The position numbers and the translations under genes are program-made. The notes beneath the pieces were generated by a model. That model had not been told where the DNA came from. It saw only the letters and a list, made by a program, of their open reading frames with translations, and did not search any database. Below, in pieces: positions 224-9,732 of a stretch of DNA of 9,732 bases (its first letter is position 1; each line of letters begins with the position of its first letter). This DNA comes from a virus (Duplodnaviria > Heunggongvirae > Uroviricota > Caudoviricetes): the IMG/VR virus record IMGVR_UViG_2671180415_000013; one strand, written 5' to 3'.

Positions 224-589
224 TCAAATCCCCAGTGAAGTCACCATTGTCCTGAGAACTTGCAGAACGTCATGATCATAACTTCCATCCAAACCGCGAC
301 GGCGAATTGCTTCTCGTATTACCGGAAGCAGTTCGCTGGAAATCTCGGTGCATATTTCACCTGATAATACGCTTGGCTCAAGTGAGAATATTGGTGAACT
401 TACGGTCTTGGTCTCGACAGTTTCAGAGTCAGTGCCAACATTATAAAGCTCAACGAAAGCGGTCTTGATTTTCCGGGCCAGATCTTTTGCTGGCTCGCTT
501 GCAATATCTTTCCCGATTTCTCGCAGCACAGAATGCAATGTATGAGCTGCTGTTTTCTGTACATCAGACGGTAAATCTTTAAATTCCAT
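224..589 (-). CDS. hypothetical protein (about 121 aa), function unknown
   Basis: ORF track 224..601. The internal ATG at 587-589 (MEFKDLPSDVQ...) is preceded on the minus strand by GAGG with a 6-nt spacer, so I prefer it to the ATG at 601. Its start lies 12 nt past the stop of the upstream small ORF. I recognise no family. Confidence 0.5.
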   Translation of the reverse strand: MEFKDLPSDVQKTAAHTLHSVLREIGKDIASEPAKDLARKIKTAFVELYNVGTDSETVETKTVSSPIFSLEPSVLSGEICTEISSELLPVIREAIRRRGLDGSYDHDVLQVLRTMVTSLGI

Positions 590-600
590 CGTCAGCCTCA

Positions 601-753
601 TCAGTCAGTGTTTCTGGCTAACCAGCAACGCGCGCCAGATTCGGTTTTAAACGTTTTGCTTTTGGTATACGTCATGGCGGTAAACGTTCCATCCTGGTTA
701 GGGAACACGCCGCACACCAGAGATTCGTTGTTGCCAAGATCGATAGTATCCAT
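601..753 (-). CDS. hypothetical small protein (about 50 aa from the internal ATG; the tracked ORF extends to 807)
   Basis: ORF track 601..807. The ATG at 751-753 (MDTIDLGNNES...) is preceded by GAGG with a 5-nt spacer, whereas the ATG at 805-807 has no recognisable SD. The SD-start context (atgaggtcagcATG) closely resembles that of the next gene (atgaggctgacgATG). Short, with no recognised family, so the coding call is weak. Confidence 0.35.
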   Translation of the reverse strand: MDTIDLGNNESLVCGVFPNQDGTFTAMTYTKSKTFKTESGARCWLARNTD

Positions 754-932
754 GCTGACCTCATTTCCCCTTAACGCCGGGGTGGCGGAACAAAAAACCT
801 GCTGCATAGTTAAAGATTGAACCCTGCCGTCATGTTCTTACGCCTCGGGCTGGCTACTTAACCCCTGACCACTGTCTGGTAACTCGAAGTATTGCCCTGC
901 ATTCTGTGGGGCGGGGTGGGTTGACGCCTGAA

Positions 933-977
933 ACAATAGCATCATTATTTTTTTTGATGTAAATAGCATCGCTATTG
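933..977. promoter_or_regulatory. Operator-like palindromes in the intergenic region downstream of the toxin gene (possible OL-like repressor sites)
   Basis: 961-977 AAATAGCatcGCTATTG is an inverted repeat with 6-bp arms and a 3-bp spacer. 933-949 ACAATAGCatcATTATT is a degenerate copy. Both resemble the perfect palindrome AAATAGTatcACTATTT at 2072-2088 in the repressor/cro intergenic region. Confidence 0.4.
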
Positions 978-990
978 TTTTTTGTTGGGG

Positions 991-1016
991 CAAGAAAAAA
1001 CCACCCTAAGGTGGTT
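991..1016 (-). terminator. Rho-independent terminator for the leftward repressor-antitoxin-toxin operon
   Basis: On the minus strand the stem AACCACC / GGTGGTT (plus coordinates 999-1016, 4-nt loop) is followed by TTTTCTTG. It lies 17 nt beyond the parE-like stop at 1033. The plus-strand reading of the same hairpin has no T-tract. Confidence 0.5.
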
Positions 1017-1032
1017 CTGTCGGCGGGAATAA

Positions 1033-1323
1033 TTAACTGTTTTTGCCTGGATACTGTCTTCGAGAATGCACAATATTTACTACTTCTATGCTTGATGCTG
1101 TTACTCGGTAAAGGATGATGTAGTTAGGATGAGTTACAATTTCACGAAGACCAAGAACTCGCTCGCTTGGAGGATACAGGTAAGGATGCTCTGTGAGCGG
1201 CAAAACGGATGTTTCAATTCGAATTTTCATTCTGCGTGCTGCCGCGGGATTTTCTTTAGCTATGTAGGCTACGATCTGGCGCAAATCATCACGAGCAGAT
1301 GGTAGCCATAAAACGGGTAACAT
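1033..1323 (-). CDS. parE: Type II toxin-antitoxin toxin, ParE/RelE family (96 aa)
   Basis: Translation MLPVLWLPSARDDLRQIVAYIAKENPAAARRM...LREIVTHPNYIILYRV...IEVVNIVHSRRQYP has the size and conserved pattern of ParE toxins. Its ATG (1321-1323) overlaps the stop of the upstream antitoxin ORF by 1 nt (TAATG). Confidence 0.85.
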   Translation of the reverse strand: MLPVLWLPSARDDLRQIVAYIAKENPAAARRMKIRIETSVLPLTEHPYLYPPSERVLGLREIVTHPNYIILYRVTASSIEVVNIVHSRRQYPGKNS

Positions 1324-1517
1324 TATTCACCTCTGTGAGTTGCAGCAGCAATTTGGGCAATAATTTGTTCCATTTCCGCCATTACCTCATCATGCGGAAT
1401 CGCCGGGCGGGGATCCGCGAGGCTTGCTGCTACTTTGGCCCGCAGCCATTCGTTGTAACTATTTTCTTGCTCAACTGTCTCAAATTCTGAAACCATTGGG
1501 GAAAGGACTGTACTCAT
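1323..1517 (-). CDS. paaA: Antitoxin, PaaA2-like small acidic antitoxin partner of ParE (64 aa)
   Basis: The 64-aa product MSTVLSPMVSEFETVEQENSYNEWLRAKVAASLADPRPAIPHDEVMAEMEQII... sits immediately upstream of, and is translationally coupled to, the ParE gene. SD GAGGAG lies 9 nt upstream of the ATG. It resembles the PaaA2 antitoxin of E. coli O157 prophage paaR-paaA-parE modules as I recall them. Confidence 0.7.
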   Translation of the reverse strand: MSTVLSPMVSEFETVEQENSYNEWLRAKVAASLADPRPAIPHDEVMAEMEQIIAQIAAATHRGE

Positions 1518-1536
1518 TTTACATATCTCCTCTGAT

Positions 1537-2037
1537 TTAGGCGCGACGGCCTTTTTGTGCAGCTAACCACCGCGCAACCGTACGATCCATTGATTCTTTT
1601 TTATCTTTCATCTCCTGAAGCATGTGTTCTTGATCTTCTTTCGGAAAAGCTCTGAACGTATGGATTAAATCTCGTTCCATCGGCTCTACGGCAAACGGTA
1701 GTTCATCCTCTGTTTGTTCTGTGTCTGCTGGTAATGCGACTATGTTATCTTGCTGTGGTTCTCGACAATACATCCTTGCAATTTGCAGCAAATCTACCAT
1801 GTCTGGCCTGATTGACTCAGGGGGAACTTTCAGTAAGCCAGCAAACTTTAGAACAGCCTCAAGGTTTAGTGGGGTTTGACCATTTAGGTAGTGACTTACC
1901 GCCCCTTGTGTTGAAAACCCCATAATTTCCGCCGCACGTTCCTGAGTCAATCCCAACTGAGATTTCTTTGCCATCCAGATTTCTTTCAGTCTTCTGGCGG
2001 CGTTGAGGTCGGTGTCTGACAATGATTTTCTTTTCAT
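1537..2037 (-). CDS. paaR: Prophage repressor with a lambda cI-like N-terminal HTH domain and no LexA/S24 peptidase domain (PaaR2-like), about 166 aa
   Basis: The N-terminus MKRKSLSDTDLNAARRLKEIWMAKKSQLGLTQERAAEIMGFSTQGAVSHYLNGQ... aligns by eye with the lambda cI N-terminus (...[47 protein letters not shown]...). The C-terminal ~85 aa are acidic and too short for an S24 domain. The tracked ORF extends to a GTG at 2067; I prefer the ATG at 2035-2037 from the cI alignment, but the start is uncertain. It is first in the operon with the antitoxin and toxin. Confidence 0.8.
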   Translation of the reverse strand: MKRKSLSDTDLNAARRLKEIWMAKKSQLGLTQERAAEIMGFSTQGAVSHYLNGQTPLNLEAVLKFAGLLKVPPESIRPDMVDLLQIARMYCREPQQDNIVALPADTEQTEDELPFAVEPMERDLIHTFRAFPKEDQEHMLQEMKDKKESMDRTVARWLAAQKGRRA

Positions 2038-2148
2038 ACATCCAATTCTAATAAGATTGCTAATCACTTTGAAATAGTATCACTATTTACTTTTAAAAAT
2101 AACAGTGCTATTAATTATGCATTGGTAACACATCACATAGGGCGGATT
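2038..2148. promoter_or_regulatory. Divergent immunity control region (PRM/PR-like) with operator palindromes
   Basis: Perfect 17-bp palindrome AAATAGTatcACTATTT at 2072-2088, and a related degenerate site at 2097-2115. A candidate rightward promoter is TTTACT (2086-2091), 17-nt spacer, TATTAA (2109-2114), overlapped by both sites. It lies between the leftward repressor gene and the rightward cro-like gene. Confidence 0.6.
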
Positions 2149-2412
2149 ATGAATCTTGGAGAATATTTGCATCATTTTCATATAACCCAGAGTTCATTTG
2201 CTGAGATTGTTGGCGCATCCCAAGGGATGGTCAGCCACGTTATAACGGGGCGTGCAAAACTTACAGGAGAAAAAATATTACGTTGGTGTGAAGCAACGGG
2301 ATGGGTGGTGACCCCACATGAGATTGACAGTAAAACCTACCCCAACCCAACTGACGGCTTGCCTGCTGAGTTTCAGGCTAACACACAACCATCGGCGGGG
2401 GTTGATTCATGA
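2149..2412 (+). CDS. Cro-like HTH regulator (YdaS-like), about 87 aa
   Basis: MNLGEYLHHFHITQSSFAEIVGASQGMVSHVITGRAKLTGEKI... is a small HTH protein transcribed divergently from the repressor. The tracked ORF starts at a TTG at 2122; I prefer the ATG at 2149, preceded by agggcgg. Its TGA stop overlaps the ATG of the next gene (ATGA at 2409-2412). Confidence 0.7.
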   Translation: MNLGEYLHHFHITQSSFAEIVGASQGMVSHVITGRAKLTGEKILRWCEATGWVVTPHEIDSKTYPNPTDGLPAEFQANTQPSAGVDS

Positions 2413-2834
2413 AAATCAAGCATGAACACATCCGCATGGCGATGAAAGCCTGGGCGCATCCGGACGGTGAAAAAGTTCCGGCAGCTGAAATAACCAGGGT
2501 TTATTTCGAACTGGGAATGACGTTTCCGGTTCTGCATAACGACAGCAAGCACAACACGCTTTATCTCAACACCCAAAAGATTTTCCGTTGGCTGGATAAA
2601 GACACCCCTGACGCTGTTGAAAAAATTCAGGCGTTGTTACCTGCGATCGAAAGGGCAATGCCACCTCCGCTGGTGGCTCGAATGCGCAGCCACAGTTCAG
2701 CTTATTTTCGGGAACTGGTGGAGACGCATGAACGACTGGTGAGAGACGCTGATGATTTTGTCGCAGTGGCAATCGCCGGTTTCAATCAGATGAACCGTGG
2801 TGGCCCGGCAGGAAATGCTGTGGCAGTACATTGA
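2409..2834 (+). CDS. YdaT-like protein (CII functional analogue in Rac-type prophages), 141 aa
   Basis: The N-terminus MKIKHEHI... and the ~140-aa size match my recollection of Rac YdaT. It sits directly after the cro-like gene with an ATGA overlap. Family assignment is from memory. Confidence 0.65.
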   Translation: MKIKHEHIRMAMKAWAHPDGEKVPAAEITRVYFELGMTFPVLHNDSKHNTLYLNTQKIFRWLDKDTPDAVEKIQALLPAIERAMPPPLVARMRSHSSAYFRELVETHERLVRDADDFVAVAIAGFNQMNRGGPAGNAVAVH

Positions 2835-3976: not shown

Positions 3977-4725
3977 ATGAAAAACATTGCGGCAGCCGGG
4001 GTTCTTGAACGTATTCACAGNNNNNNNNNNNNNNNNNNNNNNNNNNNNNNNNNNNNNNNNNNNNNNNNNNNNNNNNNNNNNNNNNNNNNNNNNNNNNNNN
4101 NNNNNNNNNNNNNNNNNNNNNNNNNNNNNNNNNNNNNNNNNNNNNNNNNNNNNNNNNNNNNNNNNNNNNNNNNNNNNNNNNNNNNNNNNNNNNNNNNNNN
4201 NNNNNNNNNNNNNNNNNNNNNNNNNNNNNNNNNNNNNNNNNNNNNNNNNNNNNNNNNNNNNNNNNNNNNNNNNNNNNNNNNNNNNNNNNTGTGTTCAGCG
4301 GTAAAACCGGCACCGGGAAAAATCACCTTGCAGCGGCGATGGGTAACCGGCTGATGGCGAAGGGGCGCAGCGTGATTATCGTCACCGAGTCTGATGTCAT
4401 GAGCGTGTTGCATGACAGCTACGACAACGGCAAATCCGGTGAAAAATTTTTACAGGAGCTTTGCGGGGTTGATTTGCTGGTCCTGGATGAAATAGGCATT
4501 CAGCGGGAGACGAAAAACGAGCAGGTGGTATTGCACCAGATAATTGATCGCCGGACAGCATCACTGTGCAGTGTCGGGATGTTAACAAACCTGAATCATG
4601 CCGCAATGAGCACGCTTCTTGGTGAGAGGATTATGGACCGCATGACCATGAACGGTTGTCGGTGGGTGACGTTTAACTGGGATAGCTGGCGTTCAAATGT
4701 CAGCTTTCCGGGAGTTGTGAAGTAA
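3977..4725 (+). CDS. dnaC: DnaC-like helicase loader (AAA+ ATPase), interrupted by an N-run
   Basis: The N-terminus starts MKN like E. coli DnaC. After the gap, FSGKTGTGKNHLAAAMGNRLMAKGRSV...LLVLDEIGIQRETKNEQVVLHQIIDRR...GMLTNLNHAAMSTLLGERIMDRM...WVTFNWDSWRS closely matches DnaC Walker A/B and C-terminal motifs as I recall them. SD GGGGGTGAT precedes the ATG at 3977, and the O-like stop is at 3968-3970. The two sides of the gap are in different frames, so the N-run length is not the true length. Confidence 0.85.
4021..4289. other. Run of 269 N (assembly gap or masked segment) inside the DnaC-like gene
   Basis: Literal n characters in the sequence. Confidence 0.99.
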
Positions 4726-5487: not shown

Positions 5488-5892
5488 ATGGCAAAAGTAT
5501 TTACACAGGAAGAGCGGGAAAAAATTAAGGGGCAGGTTGTTGAACTCGTACGCCAGAGTGGGCGCGAGACGTTACGACAACTGGAAGCTAAAANNNNNNN
5601 NNNNNNNNNNNNNNNNNNNNNNNNNNNNNNNNNNNNNNNNNNNNNNNNNNNNNNNNNNNNNNNNNNNNNNNNNNNNNNNNNNNNNNNNNNNNNNNNNNNN
5701 NNNNNNNNNNNNNNNNNNNNNNNNNNNNNNNNNNNNNNNNNNNNNNNNNNNNNNNNNNNNNNNNNNNNNNNNNNNNNNNNNNNNNNNNNNNNNNNNNNNN
5801 NNNNNNNNNNNNNNNNNNNNNNNNNNNNNNNNNNNNNNNNNNNNNNNNNNNNNNNNNNNNNNNNNNNNNNNNNNNNAGTGCCGGAAGAGTGA
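5488..5892 (+). CDS. hypothetical protein whose interior is lost in an N-run (N-terminus MAKVFTQEEREKIKGQVVELVRQSGRETLRQLEAK...)
   Basis: ATG at 5488 follows a G-rich stretch. The frame appears continuous across the N-run to a TGA at 5890-5892 only if the N-run length is exact, which is unknown. Product unknown. Confidence 0.35.
   Translation: MAKVFTQEEREKIKGQVVELVRQSGRETLRQLEAKXXXXXXXXXXXXXXXXXXXXXXXXXXXXXXXXXXXXXXXXXXXXXXXXXXXXXXXXXXXXXXXXXXXXXXXXXXXXXXXXXXXXXXXXXXXXXXXVPEE
5594..5876. other. Run of 283 N (assembly gap or masked segment)
   Basis: Literal n characters in the sequence. Confidence 0.99.
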
Positions 5893-6578: not shown

Positions 6579-8411
6579 ATGGCCCGCATGTTTGATACAT
6601 TAGGATTTTACATTATGAATGTGCAACATTTTGATTTTTTTACAGATAATGAGTTTTCTAATCTGGAAAGATATCAAACTTGTAAAGCCATGGCCAAAGG
6701 TTATGCGGGCAATTACAAAACCGGGCAGTCAAGGTTGATGCATGCCCGCTCATACTGCTTCAGCATCGTAGCTGCATATTGGGATACCCTTGCAAAAAAG
6801 CAAAAAAGCAGCATTAAAATGAGGGCAGTACCGCACACTGTTTACATAGAAGACATTCCATGTGATGCACGCGAGCTCGCTGAACGAACAGGTGAGCTTA
6901 TTGCTCAATTTCCGGCGGAGGACGCTGGATATCTGATTGGGTCAATTTATACGGTAATGCTGCCATCCGCTTACCGTTCGGAATTGGGGGCTTACTATAC
7001 CCCCCCACCTTTGGTAGCGCGTCTCTTGGACCTGGCTGAAAAGTCTGGTGTTGATTTTTCTCATGCATCGGTTATTGATCCTGCGTGTGGTGGCGGTGCA
7101 TTTTTGGCACCAGTAGCCATTCGAATGTTAAAAAAAGACAAGGGGTCTTCCCCTGAATGGATGTTGAGGAGAATCAGTCGTCGTTTAAAGGGGATAGAGA
7201 TCGATCCATTTGCGGCTTGGATGAGTTTGGTATTGCTCGAATCTGTACTAATGCCACTATGTGTAAAGGTAAAACGTAGATTGCCTGAAGATACAATTAT
7301 TGTTGCTGATGCGCTTCAGCAAGATAAATTTTCTGGTTATGATCTTGTGGTAGGGAATCCGCCTTACGGACGTGTCACTCTCGATATTAAAACGAGAGAA
7401 AAATATTCTCGTTCGTTATTTGGTCATGCAAATCTATATGGATTGTTCACCGACTTAGCTGTTCGCATGGTTAAAGAGAAAACAGGAGTTATTGCATTTC
7501 TTACGCCAACTTCTTTTCTTGGTGGGCAGTATTTCACCGCGCTGCGAACCCTTTTGACCGAAAAAACTACTCCGTATGCCCTTGATTTCGTCACTGACAG
7601 GGATGGGGTCTTTGACGATGTTCTCCAGGAAACAATGTTGACAGCATTCAAGGCGGGAGAACATAAAGTTCGGGCCCAGGTATCCTCACTTGTCCCTAAG
7701 GGGTTGAACAAAGCAAAAATTGAGAAAATAGGTAATGTTGATATAGAAAAAGGTGGAGCAACGTGGCTTTTGCCACGCGTTAAAGATGATGCCTGTTTTC
7801 TTAATGTATTAAAACAGATGTCTACGCGTTTAGCTGATCTGGGATACTCAGTCTCTACAGGTCAGTTAGTCTGGAATCGATTTAAGTCGCAGTTGCGTAC
7901 GACGAAAGGAAAAAATAGCTACCCATTAGTCTGGGCGGAATCAATAACTTCAGCTGGTTTTCGTTTTAGTGCAGACAGAAAAAATCATGTTCCCTATATC
8001 GATATAACCCCACAACAGGGTTTCCTTGTGACAAAATCTGAATGTGTGCTTGTTCAGCGGACAACATCGAAGGAACAGGACAGAAGGATTTTAGCGGCAA
8101 TTTTACCTCAGGGATTTATAGATGAAACTGGTGGCGTAGTAGTTGAAAACCATATTAATATTGTATATTCAAACGGATTGTTCTCTGCGGTTCGCCCTGA
8201 TGTTATTGATATGCTACTTAATTCGCATGTTGTCGATCGGGCGTTCAGGTGTATAAGCGGAAGTGTTGCTGTTTCGGCCTATGAATTGCATTCAATCCCG
8301 TTGCCTTCTCTGGAGCAGGTGATGGAGATTCAATCGTTAATTGATGCTGGCGTCCACAGACGGATTATTGAGAGAACTATCGCTGGTTTCTATGGAGTGA
8401 TGATTGCATGA
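6579..8411 (+). CDS. N6-adenine DNA methyltransferase, gamma-class (Eco57I/TaqI-like N6_Mtase fold) with a C-terminal target-recognition region
   Basis: Motif order X then I then IV: GAYYTPPPLVARLL (motif X), VIDPACGGGAFLAP (AdoMet-binding motif I), DLVVGNPPYGRV (catalytic NPPY motif IV), followed by about 300 aa of putative TRD. The start is uncertain among ATGs at 6579, 6588 and 6615. The TGA stop overlaps the ATG of the next gene (ATGA at 8408-8411). Confidence 0.9.
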   Translation: MARMFDTLGFYIMNVQHFDFFTDNEFSNLERYQTCKAMAKGYAGNYKTGQSRLMHARSYCFSIVAAYWDTLAKKQKSSIKMRAVPHTVYIEDIPCDARELAERTGELIAQFPAEDAGYLIGSIYTVMLPSAYRSELGAYYTPPPLVARLLDLAEKSGVDFSHASVIDPACGGGAFLAPVAIRMLKKDKGSSPEWMLRRISRRLKGIEIDPFAAWMSLVLLESVLMPLCVKVKRRLPEDTIIVADALQQDKFSGYDLVVGNPPYGRVTLDIKTREKYSRSLFGHANLYGLFTDLAVRMVKEKTGVIAFLTPTSFLGGQYFTALRTLLTEKTTPYALDFVTDRDGVFDDVLQETMLTAFKAGEHKVRAQVSSLVPKGLNKAKIEKIGNVDIEKGGATWLLPRVKDDACFLNVLKQMSTRLADLGYSVSTGQLVWNRFKSQLRTTKGKNSYPLVWAESITSAGFRFSADRKNHVPYIDITPQQGFLVTKSECVLVQRTTSKEQDRRILAAILPQGFIDETGGVVVENHINIVYSNGLFSAVRPDVIDMLLNSHVVDRAFRCISGSVAVSAYELHSIPLPSLEQVMEIQSLIDAGVHRRIIERTIAGFYGVMIA

Positions 8412-9490
8412 ATCTGCCTGTTGTTCCCCCATTGAATGTTATCCGGGAAAGATTACAATTAATTTTCCCTGAAGGGACTGAGAATCGTGGATATTTAATT
8501 CGGGAAATAGCTGCAAAAACAATTTTTGTCATGTTTTATGCTGGTGCGGTTGAGGGGCTGGGGCGATGGATAAGGCCCAGCCAGGTTGTAAGTATGGGAG
8601 ATTCGCAGGCTGCTCTTACTGATGATGCGTCCAGAGAAAGCTGGGTAAAGATGACTTTCTCTAAACAAAAGATAAGGCCTGCTGATGCATGGTATGCGGA
8701 AAATACGCGTGAGCCAATACGTGATGAAACTATAAAAAATGGCCTAATACCTTGCAATGCAATTGTTGAGCGTAAAGGTATACCCACCACATCCTCTCGT
8801 CCTCGTTACAGTTTGAATCGCTCTTTTGCAGCACTCTTTGATGCCGGGCTTGAAGGAGATTCGCTGCTGAGTGCAATAAGTTCCTGGCAAGAAAATCATT
8901 TGAACAAAGCCGCTCTTGCTAGGTTGCGTTTATTGAAATCAGGGGCAGTGATTGCTGCTGATGCCGTAGTCGTCACTTTCCCAAATGGAGAGAAGAGAAC
9001 TTTAGCTCCGGGCCCGTCAAGTACAATAGCTAAGGCCGTCATCGAAGTTTTTGCTCCTAATTTTCTTAAGAATCCAACTGTGCTCTGGTTGTCTGAATCC
9101 GGGAATAAAGTTGTTGCTCAGGATGATGTATTGGCAAAAGCATTGGGGCTGAATATTGATGCCTCAAAAGCACTTCCAGATATTATTTTGATTGATTTGG
9201 GAGAGGACCGAACGGGTTCGGACATGCTTGTAGTTTTCACTGAAGTAGTTGCGACAGATGGGCCTATAAACAGGGAACGAAAAGTTACTCTCACTCATTT
9301 GGCTATTGACGCTGGGTTCAGCGAGAAAAATCTTGCATTCCTTACGGCATTTATGGACAGAAGTGCTCTGCCTTTTAAAAAGGCAATACCAGAATTGGCG
9401 TGGGGATCTTATGCATGGTTTGCTTCTGAACCGGAGCACTTAATTGATCTTCGGGATGGTTATCCGGTAAAGATCAGCCAGAGAAAATGA
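8408..9490 (+). CDS. Uncharacterised 360-aa protein translationally coupled to the methyltransferase; candidate cognate restriction endonuclease (possibly BsuBI/PstI-like), unverified
   Basis: Confident as a gene: long ORF, same strand, 4-nt overlap with the MTase stop, GGAG 10 nt upstream, same AT-richer composition as the MTase. The function is inferred only from context; I cannot point to a canonical PD-(D/E)xK motif by eye. The segment DIILIDLGEDRTGSDMLVVFTEVVATDG is a possible degenerate nuclease core. Confidence 0.6.
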   Translation: MNLPVVPPLNVIRERLQLIFPEGTENRGYLIREIAAKTIFVMFYAGAVEGLGRWIRPSQVVSMGDSQAALTDDASRESWVKMTFSKQKIRPADAWYAENTREPIRDETIKNGLIPCNAIVERKGIPTTSSRPRYSLNRSFAALFDAGLEGDSLLSAISSWQENHLNKAALARLRLLKSGAVIAADAVVVTFPNGEKRTLAPGPSSTIAKAVIEVFAPNFLKNPTVLWLSESGNKVVAQDDVLAKALGLNIDASKALPDIILIDLGEDRTGSDMLVVFTEVVATDGPINRERKVTLTHLAIDAGFSEKNLAFLTAFMDRSALPFKKAIPELAWGSYAWFASEPEHLIDLRDGYPVKISQRK

Positions 9491-9642
9491 CCAAAGTTTG
9501 ATATCCGCCACGCCCTGAAGGATGGGGGTTTTACGGTGCACTGGATAAAAAATCGGTTTCATAGATTTGCCCACCGTGGTATACGCCTGCGATAAAAACT
9601 TTATTGTCATCAACGGCAAAAGCAATAATTGTTCTGTGGCGG

Positions 9643-9732
9643 GGTGATGCTGCCAACTTACTGATTTAGTGTATGATGGTGTTTTTGAGGTGCTCCAGTG
9701 GCTTCTGTTTCTATCAGCTGTCCCTCCTGTTC
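9643..9732 (+). mobile_element. IS1 left-end fragment (left inverted repeat 9643-9665 and start of insA); the window ends inside the element
   Basis: GGTGATGCTGCCAACTTACTGAT at 9643-9665 matches the IS1 left terminal repeat as I recall it. It is followed by tttagtgtatgatggtgtttttgaggtgctccaGTGgcttctgtttctatcagctgtccctcctg, which encodes the InsA N-terminus. Confidence 0.85.
9698..9732 (+). CDS. insA: IS1 InsA N-terminal fragment (3' end lies outside the window)
   Basis: GTG at 9698, then ASVSISCPSC..., the InsA zinc-finger N-terminus. Confidence 0.75.
   Translation, partial: MASVSISCPSC

Follow-up and report, generated by a model that had tools for sequence, protein, structure and literature searches.

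How does a prophage of the lambda kind run its immunity with a repressor that has no self-cleavage domain, and why should the genes of a toxin and an antitoxin follow directly behind the repressor gene? The question is raised by positions 1,033 to 2,148 of a 9,732-nucleotide stretch of DNA from a virus of the class Caudoviricetes (IMG/VR record IMGVR_UViG_2671180415_000013), which in its whole length we call the window. An earlier note, made from the sequence without database searches, had recognized in the locus a cI-like repressor gene co-transcribed with a small antitoxin gene and a ParE toxin gene, and had likened it to the paaR-paaA-parE systems of the E. coli O157 cryptic prophages. We conclude, with a probability of roughly 0.85, that the locus represents the immunity region of an Escherichia/Shigella prophage of the Qin/lambda type, with a three-component toxin–antitoxin (TA) operon of the PaaR-PaaA-ParE type. 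Systems of this kind are known from the description by Hallez 2010 and the detailed analysis by Jurenas 2021 (PMC8630535), and the interpretation given in the earlier note is supported. What is new is a heteroimmune allele whose repressor has a truly cI-like DNA-binding domain, together with a prediction of its operators and a comparison of the genes that occupy the slot behind the repressor gene.

A probable operon of repressor, antitoxin and toxin

The three genes lie on the same strand in the order repressor, antitoxin, toxin, as had been claimed, and are packed with spacings of 19 nt and -1 nt (minus strand, 1033-2037; Table 1). The 19-nt spacer, from the repressor stop codon to the ATG of paaA, holds an AGGAG. 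The overlap of a single base proved correct as well: the paaA stop codon TAA (1325-1323) and the parE start codon ATG (1323-1321) have the base at 1323 in common (TAATG). Although the reading frame of the repressor is open upstream to a GTG at 2067, we set its start at the ATG, because every full-length relative begins with MKRK. A terminator scan found no terminator-like site on the minus strand within the operon. Past its end, a hairpin starts 14 nt beyond the parE stop codon (GAACCACC-UUAG-GGUGGUUU, then UUUUUUCUU, minus strand); the predicted energy of its GC-rich, 9-bp stem is -15.1 kcal/mol (z = -3.2), a stability matched in 1 of 200 shuffles. The hairpin was not listed by the generic terminator scan and was assessed by folding instead; it is kept in two loci that are 79% identical to this one (L004 and L005), and it bears out the intrinsic terminator that had been seen after the toxin gene. 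Repressor, paaA and parE are one operon, presumably co-transcribed as in their homologues. A transcript from the repressor gene would run on into paaA and parE, the latter translationally coupled, and end at the terminator, so that the TA pair would be produced whenever the lysogenic state is on.

The identity of the two small proteins is clear. The 96-aa protein matches the Pfam family ParE_toxin (E 1.8e-17) and, over residues 1-93, the crystallized ParE2 of E. coli O157:H7 (PDB 5cw7_B; E 6.7e-37). The 64-aa protein matches the PaaA2 profile of Pfam at 33 of 33 positions (PF21217; E 3e-23) and PaaA2 in the PDB (3zbe; E 1.4e-23); it matches this toxin-binding profile only, with no second domain and no room for one that binds DNA. 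These results substantiate the claim that the pair is of the PaaA2/ParE2 kind. As references we took phage Evi (L003) for PaaR2, PaaA2 and ParE2, its PaaR2 starting with MQKKE as in PMC8630535, and strain FRIK2069 (L002) for the second O157:H7 paralogue. Identity to the proteins of phage Evi is 75% for the antitoxin and 67% for the toxin. The closest TA pair is that of the second paralogue (77% for PaaA and 86% for ParE), which we take to be the paaR1-type system of CP-933M.

For the CP-933P homologue, toxicity of ParE, neutralization by PaaA, lability of the antitoxin to ClpAP and ClpXP, and stabilization of a plasmid are relayed in PMC8630535, which cites Hallez 2010. That TA pair is addictive, stabilizing plasmids through post-segregational killing (PMC8630535). 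By homology, the ParE of the window is probably toxic and its PaaA probably a labile substrate of ClpAP/ClpXP. PaaA would serve only to neutralize ParE and would have no role in binding DNA. Were the region lost or replaced, the labile PaaA would decay and ParE, which may be SOS-inducing and nucleoid-associated as its homologue is, would poison the cell, making the immunity region addictive. Addiction of this sort is what the homologues lead us to expect.

The repressor, in turn, consists of a lambda-cI-type helix–turn–helix (HTH) domain, an acidic linker and a short helical C-terminal module. Its N-terminal part matches HTH_3 of Pfam (E 8e-9), and residues 2-81 align with the N-terminal domain of lambda cI in a phmmer search of the PDB (E 2.9e-9). 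An AlphaFold model, built with 35 homologues (mean pLDDT 78.5), is all-helical, with helices in residues 8-91, a short one at 119-129 and a long one at 133-165; residues 92-118, among which 8 are acidic and 1 is basic, are disordered. Foldseek matched the fold of this domain to structures of lambda cI (1lmb/3kz3), with target-normalized TM scores of 0.85-0.93 and root-mean-square deviations of 1.0-2.5 A. Peptidase_S24 gave no match to residues 92-166 in a Pfam search even at E<=10. The earlier note was therefore right both in calling the N-terminal HTH cI-like and in holding the C-terminal region not to be an S24 peptidase; nor does that region contain the Ala-Gly cleavage site and Ser/Lys dyad of such a peptidase, the sole Ala-Gly of the protein being residues 66-67, within the folded HTH domain. 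The idea that an S24 peptidase is concealed in the C-terminus can be ruled out by the empty Pfam search and the all-helical model.

Neither a sequence search of the PDB nor Foldseek found a solved structure for the C-terminal module, Foldseek returning matches to the N-terminal domain only. We also considered that the module might be widespread; this was unsupported, as it is rare beyond the enterobacteria, with 12 representative clusters among 1.84 billion proteins. PaaR2 likewise has no autocleavage peptidase motif and is unresponsive to mitomycin C (PMC8630535), and the same paper reports that it forms octamers. By analogy, the helical module of the window repressor would serve oligomerization in place of an S24 peptidase, which would make RecA-stimulated self-cleavage impossible, and the switch at this locus is probably independent of RecA.

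A repressor incapable of cleaving itself could still be answerable to DNA damage if a LexA-controlled antirepressor, encoded elsewhere as in phage 186 (Tum) and the Gifsy phages, made the switch indirectly SOS-responsive. We consider this unlikely. A hint in its favor comes from a relative in Salmonella, where a gene of the TumE family (the family of the 186 Tum-type antirepressors) lies at L009:1207-1470, about 2.5 kb from the repressor gene. On the other hand, no LexA box (CTGT-N8-ACAG) was found in the window or in the 25 kb of a near-identical prophage in E. coli FDAARGOS_944 (L001; NZ_CP065613.1 647490-672640), whose copy of the locus is 99.4% identical. Nor did Pfam or PHROG reveal an antirepressor family (Ant, Tum or Rha type) among the open reading frames (ORFs) of the window. 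For the CP-933P switch, growth phase is the sole documented influence (PMC8630535).

Candidate operators, promoters and the switch

Four sites carry a 15-bp palindrome, AATAG-N5-CTATT. All of them lie at one end or the other of the operon, in the positions of the right (OR) and left (OL) operators of lambda. With a fuller consensus, allowing 3 mismatches or fewer, the four were the sole sites in 9.7 kb; counted by strand they gave 7 matches against 0.68 expected, a count that 0 of 200 shuffles reached. The OR2-like site is centered some 42-43 nt before the repressor ATG, and the OR sites are spaced 23 and 25 bp apart from center to center. In lambda the corresponding spacings are 23 and 24 bp. 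Where the repressors are about 78% identical (L004 and L005), the half-sites are kept and the centers vary. At one mismatch or fewer, the motif is present in every locus that we fetched with this N-terminal domain (the window, L001, L004-L005, L006-L008 and L009-L011), with two or three sites between the divergent genes and two just past the downstream cargo; a third site equivalent to the OR3-like one is found in L006-L011. At the same threshold, none was found in the loci of PaaR1 type (L002), PaaR2 type (L003) or DicA (L012).

A consensus scan placed a candidate promoter for the repressor (PRM) such that its -10 element ends 7 nt ahead of the ATG. The repressor mRNA would then be leaderless or nearly so, as demonstrated experimentally for PaaR2 and cI (PMC8630535), and the near-leaderless start is one that these homologues make plausible. 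With the promoter so placed, the perfect site at 2073-2087 has its center near -42/-43, where lambda has OR2. The positive-control residues of lambda cI, E34 and D38, are both Glu in the window repressor in the phmmer alignment. In lambda these two residues act in positive control by cI. Together with the OR2-like site near -42, they suggest positive autoregulation of the lambda kind.

The remaining parts of a switch are in place. The ydaS-like gene is divergent from the repressor gene, in the position that it has in CP-933P (PMC8630535), and YdaT is 87% identical to YdaT of CP-933P (L003) and 81% to that of the second paralogue. At the ydaS/ydaT junction, positions 2402-2419 are an exact copy, the sole one in the window, of 5'-TTGATT-N6-AATCAA-3', the operator defined by the YdaT footprint (PMC9986795). 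As 16 of 200 shuffles also produced a match to the pattern, the position at the junction weighs in the assignment too. Rightward of ydaT lie replication genes (a PHROG replication initiator and a DnaC/IstB-like ATPase). In CP-933P, whose immunity region holds paaR2-paaA2-parE2, PaaR2 is a cI analogue that binds operators of both OR and OL type, YdaS and YdaT function as Cro and CII, and the locus is bistable (PMC8630535). By the same scheme, the window repressor would bind the AATAG-N5-CTATT sites as an oligomer at OR (2050-2112) and OL (935-976), silencing two operons, ydaS-ydaT/replication to the right and ydfA...dicB to the left; YdaS would compete for the operators in the manner of Cro, and YdaT would activate a promoter resembling PRE, the promoter for repressor establishment, through the site at the junction. 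Repression and activation at the candidate operators are thus predicted from homologues.

Table 1. Positions of genes, signals and protein domains at the immunity locus, in window coordinates
Feature	Position	Strand	Details
Repressor gene	1537..2037	minus	166 aa counted from ATG
lambda-cI-type HTH domain	2037..1765		residues 1-91; sequence and fold match to lambda cI
Acidic disordered linker	1764..1684		residues 92-118; AlphaFold model
PaaR/DicA-type two-helix C-terminal module	1683..1540		residues 119-166; alignment with PaaR2, L002 repressor and DicA
paaA antitoxin gene	1323..1517	minus	64 aa, without DNA-binding domain
parE toxin gene	1033..1323	minus	96 aa
Intrinsic-terminator-like hairpin and U-tract	994..1021	minus	folding and conservation
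OR1-like operator	2098..2112		AATAACAGTGCTATT; one half-site mismatch; over presumed PR -10 region
OR2-like operator	2073..2087		AATAGTATCACTATT; perfect palindrome; abuts PRM -35
OR3-like operator	2050..2064		AATAAGATTGCTAAT; 2 half-site mismatches; overlaps PRM spacer and -10
PRM-like promoter	2045..2073	minus	TTCAAA-17-TAGAAT; consensus scan
OL-like operator	935-949		AATAGCATCATTATT; one half-site mismatch; between terminator and ydfA
OL-like operator	962-976		AATAGCATCGCTATT; perfect; between terminator and ydfA
ydaS-like gene (Cro analogue)	2149..2412	plus	87 aa HTH; Pfam HTH_3; PHROG 35 transcriptional repressor, 8e-17
ydaT gene (CII analogue)	2409..2834	plus	141 aa; Pfam YdaT_toxin, 5e-9; PHROG 163 CII-like activator, 3e-40
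YdaT operator	2402..2419		TTGATTCATGAAAATCAA; ydaS/ydaT junction (PRE region)
ydfA (DUF1391)	601-807	minus	left of terminator, downstream of OL-like operators

The distribution of the operators also bears on what the HTH protein is. Since PaaA has no DNA-binding domain, the upstream protein could in principle be no more than the DNA-binding half of an antitoxin split in two, autoregulating the TA operon instead of conferring immunity; the notion of a split antitoxin is discussed in PMC8630535. We think this very improbable. The operators flank the operon at OR and OL, 1.1 kb apart, and overlap both the divergent control region of ydaS-ydaT and the region upstream of ydfA; the same operators and N-terminal domain occur with unrelated cargo; and the repressor gene stands exactly at the cI/dicA position. 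We therefore retain the view that it encodes the immunity repressor.

Several points weigh against our interpretation of the locus. The OR3-like site is weak and is the least secure of the operator calls. The promoter scan performed at the level of chance (3 found, 3.0 expected), so that the assignment of PRM rests on its position and on the precedent of PaaR2 and cI (PMC8630535). The rightward and leftward promoters, PR and PL, were assigned by eye, the scan having missed both. In the near-identical prophage of E. coli FDAARGOS_944, the genes for the Q antiterminator and the large terminase are frameshifted; that prophage is probably cryptic, and the switch may be vestigial. Finally, ParE2 activity was undetected in both transcriptional states of CP-933P (PMC8630535), which makes the benefit of the TA pair a hypothesis still.

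Immunity alleles and the cargo slot

The comparison with FRIK2069 brings out how the allele is put together. The two loci are homologous in DNA over window 610-1664, a span that reaches from ydfA across parE and paaA and takes in the final ~130 nt of the repressor gene; homology returns at 2338-2832, covering the 3' portion of ydaS as well as ydaT. Between these flanks, positions 1665-2337 are non-homologous and comprise the repressor N-terminal domain and linker, OR, and the 5' part of ydaS with its HTH; the FRIK2069 repressor is a DicA-like protein of 133 aa. The segment is a classical lambdoid heteroimmune 'imm' cassette. Its breakpoints fall inside two genes, one at the boundary between the repressor linker and C-terminal module and the other in the middle of ydaS. 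Both regulators are accordingly chimeras, in which the DNA-binding part is specific to the allele and the C-terminal part is shared. Protein alignments agree: the repressor is 46% identical to PaaR2 over its last 61 residues only (107-166) and 56% identical to the FRIK2069 repressor over its last 64 residues only, so that homology to PaaR1 and PaaR2 is confined to the C-terminal part. By its sequence, then, the repressor is a heteroimmune allele with a swapped DNA-binding domain. The match to paaR-paaA-parE accordingly holds for the toxin, the antitoxin, the gene order and the location, but does not extend to the repressor as a full-length orthologue of PaaR2.

Among 5426 complete E. coli genomes, 842 had a match to the region (window 1033-2150 as query). 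In 72 of the 842 the match covered 80% of the query or more, so that these carry the lambda-like type of repressor, and two genomes were at least 99% identical. An identical repressor protein is on record from Shigella sonnei. This allele was absent from a collection of 50,697 phage records, where all matches to the repressor were below 60% identity and phage Evi was the only phage with a module of the PaaR2 type. In the FDAARGOS_944 prophage, ydfA is followed by ydfB, ydfC, dicB, an exonuclease gene, an integrase gene and a tRNA-Ser gene. That prophage is integrated between tRNA-Ser/mtfA and late genes, and its gene content to the right of ydaT differs from that of the window.

The TA cassette is found behind no fewer than three kinds of repressor DNA-binding domain, and the converse is also seen, the same N-terminal domain being followed by different cargo. 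In metagenome contigs (L006:4001-6360, L007 and L008), repressors of 244 aa consist of a lambda-cI-like HTH, then a PaaR1/DicA-type HTH and then the same C-terminal module, and HipA_2 and DUF3037 proteins are encoded downstream instead of PaaA-ParE. The 166-aa window repressor resembles this architecture minus the internal HTH. In Salmonella enterica subsp. diarizonae and related strains (L009:4001-5339, L010 and L011), the repressor has 154 aa and a more DicA-like C-terminus, and HigB-HigA follows it. In all relatives compared, the cargo is bounded by the repressor gene on one side and an OL-like pair on the other.

Might PaaA-ParE, then, be mainly an anti-phage module expressed in the lysogen, acting in exclusion or abortive infection from an exchangeable defense slot as a functional analogue of lambda rexAB, and not an addiction module? 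The pair occupies the rexAB position (PMC9986795); the same N-terminal domain and operators come with HigB-HigA or with HipA_2 and DUF3037, the latter being a validated defense system (DS-6/HipAD; PMC13092281); and a type II restriction-modification system lies in the same prophage. Yet PADLOC models were unmatched by all three proteins of the operon, the sole demonstrated phenotype of the homologue is plasmid stabilization by post-segregational killing (PMC8630535), and phage defense by PaaA-ParE was unreported in the 12 best-ranked of 433 papers from a single full-text search. We judge this explanation possible but doubtful; the presence of HigBA and HipAD in the same slot of relatives keeps a defense role for PaaA-ParE in play. 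Equally tentative is a broader proposal: that the interval from the repressor gene to OL is an exchangeable slot for lysogen cargo expressed from PRM, in which PaaA-ParE would be a rexAB-like exclusion module rather than, or besides, an addiction module, and that the C-terminal module, paaA and parE move as one cassette, able to combine with any HTH at a junction within the acidic linker.

Other features of the window were noted in passing. At its left, positions 224-807 (minus strand) hold ydfA and a 125-aa ORF (PHROG 33007), with which the presumed PL operon opens. In the early region, an Eco57I/N6-type methyltransferase of 610 aa (6579-8411, plus strand; PADLOC MTase_II, 4e-300) is followed with a 4-nt overlap by a BsuBI/PstI-family endonuclease of 360 aa (8408-9490, plus strand; PADLOC REase_II, 3e-128). 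The two are a complete type II restriction-modification pair, with a GC content of 43-44% against 47% for the window. Runs of N at 4021-4289 (269 bases) and 5594-5876 (283 bases) break the gene for the DnaC/IstB-like ATPase and the region past a DUF1627 (ydaW-like) gene; ORFs called across them are artifacts. Near the right end, a 41-aa ORF (9531-9656, minus strand; ...FIAGVYHGGQIYETDF...) looks by eye like the C-terminus of a RelE/ParE-type toxin; it has stops upstream and no Pfam match, and may be a gene remnant.

The importance of the locus is modest overall. It extends the three-component PaaR-PaaA-ParE design past the two O157 cryptic prophages, and it is the first allele met in this analysis whose repressor is recognizably like lambda cI by sequence. 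The occurrence of such a repressor in a PaaR-type operon forms an evolutionary bridge between cI and the short repressors of the PaaR/DicA kind. The repressors of 123, 133, 166 and 244 aa make up a natural domain-swap series that offers a handle on how a repressor that cannot be cleaved is turned off and bears on whether the TA pair guards the immunity region from replacement, and the predicted operators are simple targets for testing.

Comparison with known systems

The closest known system is that of CP-933P (Sp12) in O157:H7. The window has a ParE homologue, a PaaA antitoxin, an upstream HTH regulator and a location beside ydaS-ydaT in the immunity region, as expected for a three-component TA system, and its layout of ydaT-ydaS, repressor-antitoxin-toxin and ydfA...dicB agrees with that of CP-933P (PMC8630535). 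Common to both are the gene order, the strand, the position opposite ydaS-ydaT, an identical YdaT operator, operator clusters of OR and OL type, a repressor without S24 that ends in a helical module of ~50 aa, and a promoter placed for a leaderless mRNA. The differences lie in the immunity specificity. The window repressor has 166 aa and PaaR2 has 123; the former has an N-terminal domain of the lambda cI type, whereas PaaR2 is described as being without sequence similarity to cI (PMC8630535); the operators are AATAG-N5-CTATT in the window, whereas the CP-933P repeats have the consensus GTTTAGTAA (PMC8630535); and the two YdaS proteins are unrelated, with no BLASTP match.

Lambda itself provides the model for the other end of the repressor. 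Identity to the N-terminal domain of lambda cI is 39% over 89 aa, and the basic N-terminal arm is retained (KRKSL in the window repressor, KKKPL in lambda). Both have cargo in the interval from repressor gene to OL, which in lambda is rexAB. Unlike repressors of the lambda cI/LexA type, however, that of the window has no S24 domain, no linker Ala-Gly and no Ser/Lys dyad; it also differs from lambda cI in its operator sequence and presumably in oligomerizing through the two-helix module.

DicA of the Qin prophage of E. coli K-12 occupies the equivalent position relative to ydfA-ydfB-ydfC-dicB and is likewise a short repressor without S24. Its C-terminal module is homologous to that of the window repressor (BLASTP, 29% over 51 aa, E 2e-6), but its N-terminal domain differs. 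The NCBIfam model for DicA (NF007257) matched residues 106-162 only, at E 7e-8 and with 32.4 bits against a cut-off of 101, which places the window repressor outside that family. In Qin, dicC is divergent from dicA, which is followed by ydfA, ydfB, ydfC, dicF and dicB with no TA pair between dicA and ydfA; relative to Qin, therefore, the window has a TA pair inserted between the repressor gene and ydfA.

Finally, the operon shares with the classical ParD-ParE systems (RK2 and parDE2 of Vibrio cholerae) a toxin of the ParE fold and a small labile antitoxin encoded just upstream of it. In contrast to those systems, the antitoxin of the window has no ribbon–helix–helix or any other DNA-binding domain and so is not of the autoregulating kind; regulation is instead the province of a separate prophage repressor acting within a circuit of the Cro/CII type.

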